DNA of 5,486 nucleotides from Enterobacteria phage FL68 Tallahassee/FL/2012. The translations under genes were made by a program, and so were the position numbers. Under the pieces are notes generated by a model that saw only the letters and a program-made list of their open reading frames with translations, searched no databases and was not told the DNA's origin. Position 1 is the stretch's first letter, and every line of letters starts with the position of its first letter. The stretch is from sequence record KF044309.1; one strand, written 5' to 3'. Below are positions 1 through 5,486 of the stretch, in pieces.

Positions 1-3
1 ACC

Positions 4-33
4 TTGACACAACCATAACTACATATCTATCAT
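4..33 (+). promoter_or_regulatory. Candidate sigma70 promoter for gene A (pA-like): -35 TTGACA at 4-9, 18-nt spacer, -10 TATCAT at 28-33
   Basis: Perfect -35 hexamer TTGACA at 4-9; the best -10 at compatible spacing is TATCAT (28-33). The predicted transcript start (~40) lies upstream of the GGAGG Shine-Dalgarno at 48-52 and the ATG at 62. Position matches the H-A intergenic promoter of phiX174-type phages. Sequence pattern only. Confidence 0.3.
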
Positions 34-61
34 GCCTCCAAATCATCGGAGGCTTTCTTAC

Positions 62-1723
62 ATGCAACAAGCTAGTGACTTCTACAACAAACCACATATC
101 GACGCTATCAAACCACTCGTTGAAACCGCTGGTATGTCTGTGCTTTCTCAATCTCCAAACCTCCGTATCTGGAAACAGGTAAATTCTCGTATCAAACTAT
201 TGGAAGAAATCCTTGCTCATTACACCAATGGCATCCGCCGTGACGACAACGGCGACTTCTGGATGAATCCCAATTCTCAACTCGCAACCACAATTGCCTA
301 TCGTGCCCATCAAAAAGGACACAACCCAAAACTTATTCAATACCCTGATACATTCACTCTGGATGACATCATCCGTAAAAAGCCATTACCACAAAACGCT
401 CCTGACGAATTAAAACTCTCCGATGAAATCGGGGAAGACTATCGCCTTACAATCATCTCTCTAATCGAAGAAATGCAAGAAATCTACGACGTGCTCGGAC
501 AACTTGATATTAATAACACTATAGACCACAAACCTATCGGTAACGCCCACTGGAATCTACTCTATGAAAAACCTGTATATAAACACTGGTATGAACTGGT
601 ATCAAAACGACCCCTTAAATCAATCAGAGACGACTACAACTATGCAAAGGCTAAGGGTATTAAGGATGAATGCTCGAAAATCCTTGAGGAATCCACCATG
701 AAATCACGTAGAGGCTTTACCGTACAAAGACTAATGAATGCTATGCGCACTGCCCACACTGAGGGCTGGTACGTTGTATTCGATACTCTTACTCTTGCCG
801 ATGACCGCCTTAAGGATTTCTATGATAATCCCAATGCTCTTCGTGACTATTTCCGTGATATTGGTCGTATGGTTCTCACTGCCGAGGGTCGTTCTGTCCA
901 TGATTCATCTTCGGACTGCTATCAGTACTTTTGTGTGCCTGAGTATGGCACCCAGCACGGCCGTTTACATTTTCACGCAGTGCACCTTATGCGCACACTT
1001 CCTTTGGGTTCTATCGACCCTAACTTTGGCAAGCTGGTGCGTACTAATCGGCAAATAAATAGCTTGCAAAATACATGGCCCTATGGTTACTCTATGCCCA
1101 TCGCGGTCCGGTACTCCCAAGACGCATTCTCGCGCGCTGGCTGGCTCTGGCCCGTTGATACAAAGGGCGAACCTCTTAAAGCTACCTCGTATATGGCTGT
1201 CGGCTTCTACGTCGCTAAATACGTTAACAAAAAATCAGATATTGACATGGCCTCTAAAGGTCTAGGGAATAAAGAATGGAACAATTCACTCAAAACCAAA
1301 ATCAACCTGCTGCCCAAGAAAATCTTCCGCATCAGAATGTCTCGCAACTTCGGAATGAAGCTGCACACAATGAGTCACCTCTCAGCGGAAACTCTAATCC
1401 AACTGACCCAAGTGGGCTACGACGTGACCCCGTTCAACAACATCTTGAAGCAGAACGCCAAGAAAGAGCTACGATTGAGGCTGGCAAAGAAATCTGTCGC
1501 CGACGTTTTGGAGGCGCAACCTGTGACGACCAATCTGCTAAAATTCATGCGCAATTTGACCCGTCAAATCGGAGTGTCCAACCTGCAGAGTTTTATCGCT
1601 TCAATGACAACGAAATTAACAAGTATGGATATTTCTGATGAAACCAAAAACTACGTTGATACTGCAGGAATTACTGCTACTCACTTACGAATTAAATCGA
1701 AGTGGACTGCTGGTGGAAAATGA
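62..1723 (+). CDS. A: Replication initiation protein A (rolling-circle HUH endonuclease, gpA)
   Basis: Long ORF in frame 2, collinear with my recollection of phiX174/G4 protein A (e.g. [63 protein letters not shown]-terminus). HUH motif HFHAVH at 968-985; catalytic YVAKY at 1208-1222. Start is ambiguous: the ORF opens at ATG 32 (563 aa) with no Shine-Dalgarno, while in-frame ATG 62 (553 aa) has GGAGG at 48-52 with 9-nt spacing. I call 62; the alternative is 32..1723. Confidence 0.9.
500..529 (+). other. Viral (+) strand origin of rolling-circle replication, 30-nt conserved core CAACTTGATATTAATAACACTATAGACCAC; predicted gpA nick between G506 and A507
   Basis: Exact match to the 30-nt origin conserved in phiX174/G4/alpha3/St-1 as I recall it. 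Lies inside gene A at the homologous place and encodes [10 protein letters not shown]. Confidence 0.85.
698..1723 (+). CDS. A*: Protein A* (internal in-frame restart within gene A; C-terminal 341 aa of gpA)
   Basis: In-frame ATG at 698 with GAGGA Shine-Dalgarno at 686-690 (7-nt spacing). Product begins MKSRRGF as phiX174 A* does, and is 341 aa, the same length as phiX174 A*. Confidence 0.75.
1276..1638 (+). CDS. B: Internal scaffolding protein B
   Basis: 120-aa ORF in frame 1, wholly inside gene A. Collinear with phiX174 gpB as recalled (MEQ..., QLR(D/N)E(N/A)AHN, GLRRD(A/P)[17 protein letters not shown](K/Q)[11 protein letters not shown]-terminal (F/Y)GYF). GGGA Shine-Dalgarno-like stretch at 1265-1268. 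Stop TGA overlaps the K start (TGATG). Confidence 0.9.
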
Positions 1724-1808
1724 AGAAATTCAATCTGAACTTAAAAAACTCGAGAAGCTCTTACTTCGCCACCTTTCGCCATCACCTGAACGTACTGGCA
1801 AAGACTGA
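1638..1808 (+). CDS. K: Protein K (small non-essential protein overlapping A and C)
   Basis: Hand translation from ATG 1638 in frame 0 gives a 56-aa product, [56 protein letters not shown]. It is the same length as phiX174 K and shares the [17 protein letters not shown] and LEKLLL blocks. Overlaps the A 3' end and the C 5' end. Not on the supplied ORF track. Confidence 0.85.
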
Positions 1809-1974
1809 CGCTCTCGACGAGGAAAAATACCTAAATATGCTAGGTGCTCTCCTCAAGGACTGGTTCCGTTACGAAGAACATTTCGTACATGGTAAACAAT
1901 CAATGCTTGACTTATTAAATGAACGTGGACTATTATCCACATCAACAACCAACCCAAAAGGAAATACAAAATGA
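1720..1974 (+). CDS. C: Protein C (ssDNA synthesis and packaging switch protein)
   Basis: 84-aa product [21 protein letters not shown]..., collinear with phiX174 gpC ([45 protein letters not shown]). ATG 1720 overlaps the A stop TGA (ATGA). The track's 1702 start is a GTG upstream extension with no support. Confidence 0.9.
1907..1936 (+). promoter_or_regulatory. Candidate sigma70 promoter pD inside gene C: -35 TTGACT at 1907-1912, 18-nt spacer, -10 TATTAT at 1931-1936
   Basis: Near-consensus hexamers with good spacing, about 35 nt upstream of the D start. The homologous phiX174 region (TTGACA ... TACTAT) is the known pD promoter. The AAGGA Shine-Dalgarno for D at 1958-1962 lies downstream of the predicted start. 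Confidence 0.55.
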
Positions 1975-2426
1975 ACTCTAACGAATCTGCTGTTGCCTTC
2001 GCTACTGCTCTCGCATCTATCAAGCTTATTCAGGCTTCATCTGTGCTGGACCTGACCGAAGACGACTTCGACTTCTTAACCCGTGACCGTGTATGGATTG
2101 CCACTGACCGCTCCCGTGCCCGCCGCGCTATTGAGGCCTGCGTATATGGTACATTGGACTTTGTCGGATACCCTCGCTTTCCTGCTCCTGTTGAGTTTAT
2201 TGCTGCCGTCATTGCTTATTATGTTCATCCCGTTAACATCCAGACAGCATGTCTTATTATGGAAGGCGCCGAGTTCACCGAAAATATTATCAATGGTGTT
2301 GACCAGCCAGTTAAGGCCGCTGAACTATTCGCTTTTACCTTGCGTGTACGCGCCGGAAACACTGACCATGTTACACATGCAGAAACTAACGTACGTGAAC
2401 AATTACGTGCTCAAGGAGTAATGTAA
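1971..2426 (+). CDS. D: External scaffolding protein D
   Basis: 151-aa product, very close to phiX174 gpD as recalled (TALASIKLIQAS, VLDLTEDDFDFLT, VWIATDRSRARR, EACVYGTLDFVGYPRFPAPVEFIAAVIAYYVHPVNIQTACLIMEGAEFTENIING, PVKAAELFAFTLRVRAGNTD). ATG overlaps the C stop (ATGA). Confidence 0.95.
   Translation: MNSNESAVAFATALASIKLIQASSVLDLTEDDFDFLTRDRVWIATDRSRARRAIEACVYGTLDFVGYPRFPAPVEFIAAVIAYYVHPVNIQTACLIMEGAEFTENIINGVDQPVKAAELFAFTLRVRAGNTDHVTHAETNVREQLRAQGVM
2146..2421 (+). CDS. E: Lysis protein E (MraY inhibitor), embedded in the +1 frame of gene D
   Basis: ATG 2146 with GAGG at 2133-2136. 91-aa product MVHWTLSDTLAFLLLLSLLLPSLLIMFIPLTS..., matching phiX174 E in length and in the N-terminal transmembrane segment (WTLWDTLAFLLLLSLLLPSLLIMFIP). 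The track's 112-aa version starts at an upstream GTG. Confidence 0.9.
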   Translation: MVHWTLSDTLAFLLLLSLLLPSLLIMFIPLTSRQHVLLWKAPSSPKILSMVLTSQLRPLNYSLLPCVYAPETLTMLHMQKLTYVNNYVLKE

Positions 2427-2506
2427 TGGCTAAAGGCTCTCGTCGGCGTTCGCCGTCCCGCTCTAAAGGTGCTCGCCTCTGGTATGTTGGCGGCACACAA
2501 TTCTAA
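2426..2506 (+). CDS. J: DNA-binding (packaging) protein J, small basic protein
   Basis: Hand translation gives the 26-aa product MAKGSRRRSPSRSKGARLWYVGGTQF. The KGARLWYVGG core is conserved in phiX174 and G4 J proteins, and the short length matches my recollection of the G4-like J. Strong AAGGAG Shine-Dalgarno at 2413-2418; the ATG overlaps the D stop (TAATG). Too short for the ORF track. Confidence 0.85.
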   Translation: MAKGSRRRSPSRSKGARLWYVGGTQF

Positions 2507-2512
2507 TCTTCT

Positions 2513-2528
2513 AGGGGCTTCGGCCCCT
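2513..2528 (+). terminator. J-F intergenic stem-loop: 6-bp GC-rich stem AGGGGC/GCCCCT closed by a UUCG tetraloop, followed by CTATTT
   Basis: Perfect inverted repeat 2513-2518 / 2523-2528 with loop TTCG. Sits between the J stop and the F Shine-Dalgarno, where phiX174 has its inefficient terminator and mRNA-stabilising hairpin TJ. Confidence 0.45.
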
Positions 2529-2545
2529 CTATTTAAGGATATAAA

Positions 2546-3829
2546 ATGTCTAACGTTCAAACTTCCGCTGACCGTATTCCTAACGACCTTTCTCACCTCG
2601 TCTTCGAGGCTGGCAAAATCGGTCGTTTAAAAACTATCTCTTGGACTCCAGTTGTCGCTGGCGACTCATTTGAAACTGAAATGGTAGGCGCTATTCGCCT
2701 TTCCCCACTTCGTCGTGGCCTTGCCGTCGACTCTCGCGTGGATATTTTCTCCTTCTACATCCCGCATCGTCATATCTATGGTCAACAATGGATTGACTTT
2801 ATTAAAGCTGGTGTTAATGCTACTCCGCTGGCTCCTGTTACCTGCTCCTCTGGCTGGGACTCTGCTGCCTATCTTGGCACTATTCCATCATCTACACTCA
2901 AGGTTCCTAAATTCTTACATCAAGGATACCTGAATATTTACAATAACTACTTCAAACCGCCGTGGGATACTGACCTCACTTACGCTAACCCATCTAACAT
3001 GCCTGAACAGGATTATAAATGGGGTGTTCGTGTCGCTAACTTAAAATCTATCTGGACCGCTCCTCTGCCTCCTAACTCTAAAATATCAGAGACTATGACC
3101 ACTGGCGCTACGTCTATTGATATTATGGGCCTGCAAGCTGCTTATGCTAAATTGCATACCCAACAAGAACGTGACTACTTCATGACTCGCTACCGCGATA
3201 TTATGAAAGACTTCGGCGGACACACCTCCTACGATGGTGATAACCGCCCTCTGCTGCTTATGCGCTCTGAATTCTGGGCCTCTGGCTATGACGTCGACGG
3301 TACTGACCAATCTTCATTAGGTCAGTTCTCTGGTCGCGTCCAACAGACATTCAATCACAAAGTACCTCGCTTCTATGTACCTGAACACGGCGTCATTATG
3401 ACTCTCGCTGTTACTCGCTTCCCTCCTACTCATGAAATGGAGATGCACTATCTTGTCGGCAAAGAATCTTTAACTTATACCGACATCGCTTGCGACCCTG
3501 CTCTTATGGCTAACTTGCCTCCGCGCGAAGTATCCCTTAAGGAATTCTTCCACTCTTCGCCGGACTCCGCTAAGTTCAAAATCGCCGAAGGTCAATGGTA
3601 CCGCACGCAGCCTGACCGTGTCGCATACCCTTATAACGCTCTTGATGGCTTCCCGTTCTATTCTGAACTGCCATCTACTGACTTAAAACAACGTGTCTTA
3701 GTTAATACTGATAACTACGATGAAATCTTCCAGTCTATGCAACTCGCACACTGGAATATGCAAACCAAATTTAACACTACTGTCTATAGACACATGCCTA
3801 CGACTCGTGATTCAATCATGACGTCATAA
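2546..3829 (+). CDS. F: Major capsid protein F
   Basis: 427-aa product, collinear with the phiX174 and G4 F proteins as recalled (MSN(I/V)QT, GDSFE, LRLSPLRRGLA, GYLNIYNNYFK, IDIMGLQAAYA, QERDYFM, SGYDVDGTDQ, SLGQFSGRVQQT, KFKIAEGQWYR, LPTTRDSIMTS C-terminus); same length as phiX174 F. AAGGA Shine-Dalgarno at 2535-2539. Confidence 0.97.
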   Translation: MSNVQTSADRIPNDLSHLVFEAGKIGRLKTISWTPVVAGDSFETEMVGAIRLSPLRRGLAVDSRVDIFSFYIPHRHIYGQQWIDFIKAGVNATPLAPVTCSSGWDSAAYLGTIPSSTLKVPKFLHQGYLNIYNNYFKPPWDTDLTYANPSNMPEQDYKWGVRVANLKSIWTAPLPPNSKISETMTTGATSIDIMGLQAAYAKLHTQQERDYFMTRYRDIMKDFGGHTSYDGDNRPLLLMRSEFWASGYDVDGTDQSSLGQFSGRVQQTFNHKVPRFYVPEHGVIMTLAVTRFPPTHEMEMHYLVGKESLTYTDIACDPALMANLPPREVSLKEFFHSSPDSAKFKIAEGQWYRTQPDRVAYPYNALDGFPFYSELPSTDLKQRVLVNTDNYDEIFQSMQLAHWNMQTKFNTTVYRHMPTTRDSIMTS

Positions 3830-3840
3830 AGCCTATAACG

Positions 3841-3878
3841 TGACAGGGGGAAAAATTTTAATTTTTCGCCCCCTGTCA
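3841..3878 (+). other. F-G intergenic long hairpin (10-bp GC-rich stem plus 5-bp A-T extension, with a 2-nt bulge); candidate terminator and/or complementary-strand origin element
   Basis: TGACAGGGGG (3841-3850) pairs with CCCCCTGTCA (3869-3878); AAAAA (3851-3855) pairs with TTTTT (3862-3866); CG at 3867-3868 is bulged. The F-G intergenic region is where phiX174-type phages carry a terminator (TF) and their complementary-strand initiation signals, primase-dependent in G4 and PriA-dependent in phiX174. Function is inferred from position only. Confidence 0.4.
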
Positions 3879-3928
3879 GGTTGAACAAGCGCAAGCGCGT
3901 TAGCTGCCTAACTTAAAAGGAAACTCAA

Positions 3929-4468
3929 ATGTTCCAGAAATTCGTCAAAAAACATAACGCCCCGTTAACTTCTCAAGCTGCTATCTCTAAAGCTGTTACT
4001 CCATCTATGACCGCCGCCCCTCTTGTTACTACACCTCTCGGCGTGTCTTCTACTCAATTATTCTTGGAACTTACAACCACTGCCGCCGCTGGCGGCTTCG
4101 CTTACGCTATCCGCGTAGACAATTCTAACCCTACTGATAATCAGGTCTTCTCCGTCTGTGCTCACATTACATCTGACGTGGACCCTAAATATATTGCGTG
4201 CCTCGTTCGCTTTGAGGTCACTGCTGGTACCACTCCTACCGCTATGCCTCCTGTCTATGATGCTTACCCTATCGCTGGTTACTATGGCGCTGGCTCTTAT
4301 ACTGTTGAAGACTGCGCTACTATTCCTACTCACGCTGTCTCTTCTGGCAACGATGTATATGTCGGCCTTATGCTTTTCTCTCGCATGTGGCCCGTTGCAA
4401 AACTATCCGGTATCGCTTCCCTTAATCAGGTAAACAAGGAAGTAACCGTTCTCCAACCTCTTAAATAA
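3929..4468 (+). CDS. G: Major spike protein G
   Basis: 179-aa product with the phiX174 gpG N-terminus (MFQ.F...HN), the ACLVRFE block and the SLNQV(I/N)KE...LQPLK C-terminus. AAGGA Shine-Dalgarno at 3917-3921. Confidence 0.95.
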
Positions 4469-4478
4469 GGTATTCTCT

Positions 4479-5486
4479 ATGTTTGGTGCAATCGCTGGCG
4501 GTATCGCCTCATCTCTTGCTGGCGGACTCATCAACAAAGCCTTTGGGGGCGGTCAATCCGCCTCCTCTACTGGCGTTCAAGGTGATGTCCTCGCTTCTGA
4601 CAATAACGTAATCGGTGCTAATGATGCTGGTATCAAATCCGCTATTCAAGGCTCTAATCCGCCTAATGGCCAACAAGCTGCTCCCAATGCTATTTCGGGC
4701 GTTCTCGCTGACACTGGCAAAGACGCCCTATCTTCAATCACTGGCGCTGGCGTTAATAAACTTATGGAAAAAATCGGACTATCTAAAACTGCTGCTGATA
4801 AAGGCAAGGACACAAAGGATTATCTTGCTGCTGCATTCCCCGAACTCAACGCGTGGGAACGCGCTGGCTCTGGTGCTTCGTCTGCTGGCATGGTTGACGC
4901 TGGCTTCCAAAACCAAAAAGAATTAACTCGCATGCAGCTTGACAATCAAAAAGAAATCGCTAAGATGCAAAACGACACACAAAAGGATATCGCTGGTATC
5001 CAATCTGTCACATCCCGGCAAAATACTAAGGATGCTGTCTATGCTCAAAACGAGATGCTCGAATATAACCAAAAAGAATCTATGTCACGCGTTGGCTCTA
5101 TTCTCGAAAACACAAGCCTCACCAAACAACAACAAACTTCTGAAATTATGCGGCAGATGCTTACTCAAGCTCAAACCGCAGGTCAACATTTTACAAATGA
5201 CCAAATCAAAGAACTTACACGAAAAGTTGGCGCTGATATTGATTCTGTCCGCGCTAACACTGACCGTACACATGTAGAAACTCAACGTTCAAAACAGGAA
5301 GTTCAAAACTCTCGTTATGCTTCCTCACAAGTCGGTAAAACCGCTAAAGATGTCTCTAATGCAGTTACTGATACAGCTAGTTCTATTGTTGATTATTTTC
5401 GTGGTATTGATAACAAAGTGGCAGACGCTTATAACAACTATTTCAAAGATGGTAAATCCGACGGAATCGGGTCGAACATCAAATAA
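4479..5486 (+). CDS. H: DNA pilot protein H (minor spike, DNA-translocating tube)
   Basis: 335-aa product collinear with phiX174 gpH as recalled ([56 protein letters not shown](R/K)[48 protein letters not shown]). Gly-rich N-terminus and a Gln-rich coiled-coil-like middle. Stop TAA is the last three bases of the window. Confidence 0.95.

Follow-up and report, generated by a model that had tools for sequence, protein, structure and literature searches.

The window analysed here, by which we mean the whole 5486-nt stretch of phage FL68 DNA, is a complete, circular, G4-like Bullavirinae genome, opened directly behind the gene H stop codon. Three mismatches, none of them within positions 1-70, separate it from phage FL76 (KF044310), and its identity to ID2 (NC_007817) amounts to 97.7%; FL76 and ID2 are members of Gequatrovirus talmos. 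The 553-aa product of gene A is identical to gpA of these two phages (NCBI/UniRef) and shows full-length homology to protein A of phiX174 and G4, with identities, aligned from Met1, of 87-90% to ID18 and G4, 70% to phiX174, and 45% to alpha3. The longest open reading frame at this locus begins at ATG 32 and runs to 1723, encoding 563 aa with the extra N-terminal peptide MPPNHRRLSY. An earlier note on this DNA had placed the longest ORF at 32, the hexamer TATCAT at 28-33, GGAGG at 48-52, the second candidate start at ATG 62, and this peptide between the two starts, and all of these positions are correct. The features of the junction between genes H and A are collected in Table 1.

Table 1. Features at the junction of genes H and A in FL68, with coordinates in the window
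Feature	Position	Strand	Basis or remark
-35 hexamer TTGACA, pA homologue	4..9	+	Best sigma-70 match; conserved
-10 hexamer TATCAT, adjoining the hairpin	28..33	+	Best sigma-70 match
Upstream in-frame ATG, judged a non-functional start	32..34	+	Longest ORF; end of the -10 plus the stem G
Hairpin 5' arm GCCTCC	34..39	+	Terminator scan, folding, covariation
Hairpin loop AAATCATC, with predicted pA start at A40	40..47	+	Homology with phiX174 3962
Hairpin 3' arm GGAGGC, containing the gene A Shine-Dalgarno GGAGG (48-52)	48..53	+	SD pairing, conserved stem
T-rich tail TTTCTTAC, terminator U-tract and SD-to-ATG spacer	54..61	+	TTTCTT after the stem
Gene A, replication initiation protein, 553 aa, very probable functional start	62..1723	+	Annotation in KF044310, NC_007817, KC237308
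Gene H stop codon	5484..5486	+	31 nt upstream of ATG 32 across the circular junction

In the predicted promoter of gene A, TTGACA, an 18-nt spacer, and TATCAT score 11/12 and constitute the top sigma-70 match in the FL68 genome. In an alignment of 21 Bullavirinae sequences, TTGAC was nearly invariant while the spacer drifts, and the counterparts of the -10 hexamer were TATTAT (ID204), TAACAT (ID18), TAATAT (G4), TTTCAT (phiX174 3950-3955), and TATATT (alpha3). A deep mutational scan of phiX174 recorded 15 detrimental mutations in the -35 at 3927-3932, the counterpart of positions 4-9, and found the -10 at 3950-3955 to be mutation-sensitive (bioRxiv 10.64898/2026.07.25.740675). The pA transcript of FL68 is predicted to start at A40, 7 nt after the -10; its phiX174 homologue is base 3962, marked in RefSeq as a transcription start, which is the first base of the loop and likewise lies 7 nt after the -10 TTTCAT. 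By this analogy ATG 32 would be located upstream of the pA transcript, and the earlier claim that a transcript from this promoter does not include ATG 32 is supported, as the homologous start lies downstream of that codon. Searching the literature for AAAUCUUGG, the 5' end sequence in vitro, brought up nothing relevant.

The GGAGG motif is part of a hairpin of the form GCCTCC-N8-GGAGGC followed by a T-run (34-59), the counterpart of the T_H terminator of phiX174. The earlier note had treated GGAGG as free-standing and overlooked that the Shine-Dalgarno sequence lies inside a terminator hairpin. In our scan, the hairpin at 34-53 with its TTTCTT tail was the only terminator-like site in the FL68 genome; the stem has 6 bp, five of them GC pairs, and a folding energy of -12.1 kcal/mol (z = -3.3). 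The tail TTTCTT is interrupted (5/6 T) and satisfies the rule of the terminator scan, and phiX174 has TTTTTT. Across 16 distinct aligned sequences, 99.2% of the stem cells were paired, against 35-63% in controls with slid partners, and RNAalifold independently gave the same six-pair stem. Three stem pairs show two-sided changes, e.g., U-A to C-G and C-G to U-A between G4/phiX174 and the alpha3-like phages; these compensatory changes trace to few evolutionary events and so support the structure without amounting to many independent tests. The sequence and length of the loop are free to vary between lineages, whereas the TTT after the stem is invariant and the tail ranges from 5 to 8 nt. No match was found in Rfam. 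In IMG/VR, the motif GCCTCC-N5-10-GGAGGCTTT occurs on at least 120 unrelated contigs of large phages, which is indicative of a generic terminator and makes the motif useless for finding relatives.

The combined pA-T_H element of phiX174 lowers the transcript level 0.29-fold by RNA-seq, and the authors of that work pointed out the overlap of promoter and terminator (bioRxiv 10.1101/2020.03.05.979765). It is also conceivable that the hairpin serves chiefly as an RNA-stability element, shielding upstream mRNAs at their 3' ends, or as a structure of the ssDNA genome, and that its overlap with the Shine-Dalgarno sequence is incidental. In phiX174, 17/27 mutations in the 3' stem/RBS were detrimental but only 3/23 in the 5' stem, so that hairpin formation was not strongly selected in that assay (bioRxiv 10.64898/2026.07.25.740675); in the NC35-like locus L025, the -10 and the 5' arm are lost and there remain the -35, the 3' arm with the SD, and the T-run; and the GCCTCC..GGAGGCTTT motif is generic in unrelated phages. 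Against such a role, the stem is kept across genera by compensatory changes, the T-run right after it does not vary, and the phiX174 RNA-seq shows a net drop of transcripts across the element (bioRxiv 10.1101/2020.03.05.979765). We regard this alternative as unlikely, and it would leave the call of the start codon unchanged.

To compare the two candidate starts, we paired the 22 nt upstream of each plus-strand ATG with the 3' end of 16S rRNA (n = 114). ATG 62 ranked first (1/114) at -9.5 kcal/mol, ahead of every other annotated FL68 gene, whereas ATG 32, which is preceded by CTACATATCTATC (the 13 nt at 19-31), was the weakest of all (114/114) at +1.9 kcal/mol, a difference much larger than chance would give. 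This agrees with the earlier view that ATG 32 has no ribosome-binding site of its own. The same note had credited GGAGG with ideal spacing to ATG 62; the motif is at 48-52 as described, but the gap of 9 nt, within the range of 5-13 nt, is usable and at the long end rather than ideal. That the 10-codon extension is open carries no information, given that 32-61 has no stop codon in any frame. The ATG at 32 can be understood as a by-product of the junction, since the -10 hexamer ends at 33 with the bases AT and the stem begins at 34 with G. From the Shine-Dalgarno pairing, the annotation of FL76, ID2, and ID204, and the relatives which keep the module without the upstream ATG, we are confident that ATG 62 is the main functional start of gene A and that ATG 32 represents an over-extension, as the earlier note had suggested. 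N-terminal protein evidence for A was not found for any of these phages. The sole fMet peptide reported for phiX174 A, fMQGVEFDNGDMYVDGHK, is internal and begins at Met62 (PMC6883844, Table 1), and thus gives no confirmation of the N-terminus.

We compared the region upstream of gene A among the ID2, ID18, and G4 groups, phiX174, the Lilleen group (eight genomes including Lilleto), UViG 3300005306 (locus L020), and an alpha3-like set of 13 sequences including alpha3. The module of -35, -10, SD-bearing hairpin, T-run, and ATG of A was found in every fetched Bullavirinae lineage but one, the exception being the NC35-like locus described above. The GenBank segments 1-400 of NC1, NC41, and WA10, which follow phiX174 numbering, and of NC35 and NC3, which are alpha3-like with gene A past position 400, do not contain the region upstream of gene A. 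When metagenomes were scanned with the first 153 aa of A, two loci came up, of which contig L164 is the useful one, and a search of 5.8 billion proteins gave three matches. An upstream ATG lies 30 nt before A in the ID2 group, which includes FL68 (MPPNHRRLSY), and in the ID18 group (MPPNQRRLFY); 27 nt before A in the G4 group, which includes ID52 (MPPIKRRLF), and in phiX174 (ATG 3954, MPPNLGGFF); and 30 nt before A, shifted by one base, in the metagenomic contig L164 (MASINFGGFF). Hence the earlier remark that phiX174 A has nothing matching the ten residues is true of the annotated protein but not of the DNA, in which the in-frame ATG 3954 opens a comparable extension. The upstream ATG is absent from the alpha3-like phages, all eight genomes of the Lilleen group, and UViG 3300005306, which retain the promoter-hairpin-SD-ATG module, and most of these relatives have an in-frame stop between that position and the start of A.

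By the earlier note, conservation of the upstream extension among homologues would speak against an over-extension. An in-frame, open ATG is indeed present in ID18, G4, phiX174, and L164, but what is conserved of the peptide is limited to the residues specified by the two arms of the stem; those specified by the loop differ (NH, NQ, IK, NL), and the 3' arm is read in different frames in phiX174 and G4 (GGA GGC vs CGG AGG C). Since the conserved residues are those of the stem arms, the loop residues vary, the frames differ, and three groups lack the ATG altogether, we do not read the conservation of the upstream ATG as coding. As judged from the sequences, it appears to be explained by the -10 hexamer and the covarying hairpin stem, and not by a peptide. 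The alignment of A N-termini that had been proposed as a check favours the downstream start, as the A proteins of ID18, G4, phiX174, and alpha3 align from Met1 at 62.

Taken together, positions 4-64 very probably form a composite pA / T_H / ribosome-binding element ahead of gene A, as in phiX174-like (Bullavirinae) phages. By homology with the phiX174 start, pA transcripts would begin at about A40 inside the loop and, because they begin there, would contain neither ATG 32 nor the hairpin's 5' arm. On such transcripts GGAGG 48-52 would be freed from the strong hairpin, allowing initiation at ATG 62 and synthesis of the 553-aa A protein. Read-through from gene H is the presumed origin of the transcripts ended by the hairpin at 34-53; this RNA would carry the whole hairpin, most of it may be terminated there, and in the surviving read-through RNA the hairpin would sequester the Shine-Dalgarno sequence. 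The layout of the sequence, the Shine-Dalgarno energies, the conserved hairpin with its compensatory changes, and the state of the annotation were observed directly. The start site, termination at the hairpin, and the sensitivity of the promoter and the 3' arm to mutation are carried over from phiX174 data and are probable for FL68 by analogy. The computed cost of opening the region from -20 to +13 around ATG 62 was 5.9 kcal/mol on the pA transcript vs 15.3 kcal/mol on read-through RNA, and the direction was the same in ID18 (3.7 vs 9.9), G4 (3.9 vs 13.8), and phiX174 (6.1 vs 13.3). On the predicted pA transcript the Shine-Dalgarno sequence is still mostly paired in the ensemble (probability of being unpaired, 0.14); its alternative pairings there are weak and no better than those of shuffles (z = -0.35).

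The junction ATG is in frame with A in all five of the groups which bear it (5/5, in four length configurations) and is absent in three groups. Lineages without the ATG vary by single bases, the tail being 6, 7, or 8 nt long among the Lilleen-group genomes and 7 or 8 nt long among the alpha3-like phages. Compared with the Lilleen group, L164 has ATG in place of ATA plus one extra loop base, which places the new ATG in frame. The naive probability of the retained frame is about 1/27 to 1/81 (0.01-0.04), a post hoc figure based on 3-4 events with no phylogenetic control. The in-frame retention of the junction ATG is not predicted by our main model.

This pattern would be expected if gene A had two starts, with ATG 62 as the main one and ATG 32 used on RNA reading through from H to A to give a minor 563-aa A. 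Ribosomes finishing gene H, or rare initiation independent of a Shine-Dalgarno sequence, would use ATG 32 and melt the hairpin; selection would then keep the junction ATG in frame, while lineages without the ATG would drift through all three frames. In line with this, every ATG-bearing lineage is in frame and open although the loop and the tail differ in length, length is free to change where the ATG is absent, and the stop codon of H lies only 31 nt upstream. In phiX174, RNA-seq estimates suggest that about 18% of peak transcription reaches pA-T_H and about 9% continues past it (bioRxiv 10.1101/2020.03.05.979765), so that hairpin-bearing RNA may add to the gene A mRNA. Nevertheless, ATG 32 has the weakest Shine-Dalgarno pairing of the 114 ATGs and lies at the foot of a hairpin of -12 kcal/mol, and opening it on read-through RNA costs 10-15 kcal/mol (10.3 among the values). 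The frame pattern reduces to 3-4 independent length changes noticed post hoc and not phylogenetically controlled, the openness of the frame says nothing where all three frames of 32-61 are stop-free, and three lineages manage without the ATG. Moreover, the 5' stem of phiX174, including the G of the ATG, tolerates 20/23 mutations (bioRxiv 10.64898/2026.07.25.740675), and the loop-encoded residues are not conserved. On balance, we consider a second, minor start at ATG 32 quite unlikely.

That ATG 32 is the sole true start, with A being 563 aa and the public annotation 10 codons short, is exceedingly improbable: ATG 32 opens the longest ORF, an in-frame upstream ATG is present in several homologues, and some automated pipelines do call the long form of phiX174 (240 contigs; Salmonella phage SP14), but the codon has no Shine-Dalgarno sequence, the mapped transcription start of the homologue falls downstream of it, the strongest Shine-Dalgarno sequence of the genome would be left functionless at a correct spacing before ATG 62, the alpha3-like and Lilleen-like phages lack the upstream ATG and have in-frame stops, and the homologous A proteins align from the Met at 62. 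A leaderless route to ATG 32 was also considered. No promoter able to start a transcript at A32 was found in the sigma-70 scan of the genome, and a leaderless transcript from an alternative promoter was rejected for want of a suitably placed -10.

In public records, the start at ATG 62 is already in use. Gene A is placed at 62..1723 in the GenBank records of FL76, ID2, and ID204, and the records of ID18, G4, and ID11 use the equivalent ATG preceded by a Shine-Dalgarno sequence (G4, V00657/NC_001420, A = 59..1723; ID18, NC_007856, A = 59..1729). The 563-aa form was absent from a collection of about 15 billion proteins, in which the 553-aa form is present, and the long forms of G4 and ID18 were likewise absent. 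For phiX174, the long form (MPPNLGGFF followed by A, 522 aa) was found on 240 contigs, most of them phiX174 contaminants of other assemblies, and Salmonella phage SP14 has it too; at least 1000 contigs carry the 513-aa form. The expected over-extension of A by automated annotation thus did not occur in this phage, for which we found no such case, but the concern is real for the family, given the 240 contigs and the one deposited phage record with the 522-aa form. The value of the result for annotation is that choosing the longest ORF makes gene A of phiX174-like phages 9-10 codons too long. It also illustrates a compact overlap of signals in a tiny genome, where promoter, terminator, ribosome-binding site, and what looks like a start codon share the same few bases. 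The pA / T_H / RBS arrangement has already been described and the gene A start is already correctly annotated; the current understanding of these phages is unchanged, and the sole question added concerns the in-frame retention of the junction ATG.

Compared with phiX174 (nt 3927-3983, NC_001422), the FL68 element has the same parts in the same order and spacing, namely TTGACA, a -10 ending in CAT, GCCTCC-loop-GGAGGC, a T-run, and the ATG. The stretch cATGCCTCCAAATC..GGAGGCTTT is almost identical and the junction ATG is in frame in both phages. The -10 is nearer to the consensus in FL68 (TATCAT) than in phiX174 (TTTCAT), and FL68 lacks the upstream TATG extension. The loop is 8 nt in FL68 vs 7 nt in phiX174 and the stem 6 vs 8 bp, and the tail is 8 nt (TTTCTTAC) vs 6 nt (TTTTTT). 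As a result of the longer tail, the U-tract of FL68 is interrupted and its Shine-Dalgarno gap is 9 nt against 7 nt in phiX174; in G4 the gap is 6 nt. The G4 and ID18 groups belong to the same genus as FL68 and share the same module, the in-frame junction ATG, and an annotated start at the SD-preceded ATG, but the tail of G4 is 3 nt shorter than that of FL68 and the first residues of A differ (MQQASDF in FL68, MFKVHSD in G4, MQQHLTASDF in ID18). In the alpha3-like and Lilleen-like phages, the promoter likewise adjoins the hairpin, the Shine-Dalgarno sequence lies in the 3' arm (GAGGGC or GGAGGC), and a T-run and the ATG follow; unlike in FL68, the junction reads TATATT|G (alpha3-like) or TCTAATA|G (Lilleen-like) and hence holds no ATG. 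The alpha3-like stems, at 10 bp, are longer than that of FL68 and carry compensatory changes, and the tails vary by single bases.

A simple terminator scan of the window (1-5486) returned one site only, at 34-53, against 3.8 expected in shuffled sequences, and under the same rule no counterparts of phiX174 T_J, T_F and T_G were detected in its J-F, F-G and G-H gaps. Two further strong promoter-like matches were found in the window (see table); the one preceding gene D is consistent with a pD homologue, and the one within gene H has no known counterpart among those checked.

Coordinates of the features considered in this part
Sequence	Position	Strand	Feature	Remarks
Window	1907-1936	+	promoter-like match TTGACT/TATTAT	10/12; directly upstream of gene D
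Window	4939-4966	+	promoter-like match TTGACA/TAAGAT	10/12; within gene H
alpha3 NC_001330 (L012)	4-68		second promoter-hairpin-T-run-ATG module	immediately 3' of H stop
L025 (IMG/VR UViG 2974698941)	696-732		reduced gene A upstream module	NC35-like, alpha3-like; 6039 nt
phiX174	3954-5386,1-136		over-extended protein A, 522 aa	MPPNLGGFF plus A

For phiX174 protein A, an N-formyl-Met peptide, fMQGVEFDNGDMYVDGHK, has been cited as support for the annotated gene start and was detected only from the recoded kleenX174 template (PMC6883844, Table 1). In our comparison, this peptide starts at the internal Met62 of A and not at MVRSYYP. The over-extended 522-aa form has been deposited on 240 contigs. 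Salmonella phage SP14 (WYA77335.1) is among the carriers, and so are assemblies that bear the names Neisseria gonorrhoeae and Enterococcus faecalis, in which it is phiX174 spike-in contamination.

The second module of alpha3, about 690 nt upstream of gene A's own module, reads TTGACA ... GAGACTC..GGAGTCTTTTTT ATG and is followed by a 47-codon ORF (MKPAHRLYHPVLGSW...) which carries no annotation. Among the Lilleen-like phages, the spacers between GGAGGC and the A start at the H-A junctions of Lilleto (L169), Lilledu (L171) and Lilleen (L037) are TTTAAC, TTTAACA and TCTTTCGA, respectively. Close relatives differ in spacer length by single bases, which gives SD-to-ATG distances of 7 to 9 nt within this one group.

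The NC35-like locus L025 lacks about 29 nt with reference to alpha3. Neither the -10 hexamer nor the hairpin's 5' arm is left, and the junction reads TTGACAGA|TAGTTTTACTACGAGGAC TTTTTCGT ATG; the -35 hexamer, the 3' arm with its SD and the T-run are still present. This pattern of loss fits the phiX174 result, in which the 3' arm matters and the stem does not.
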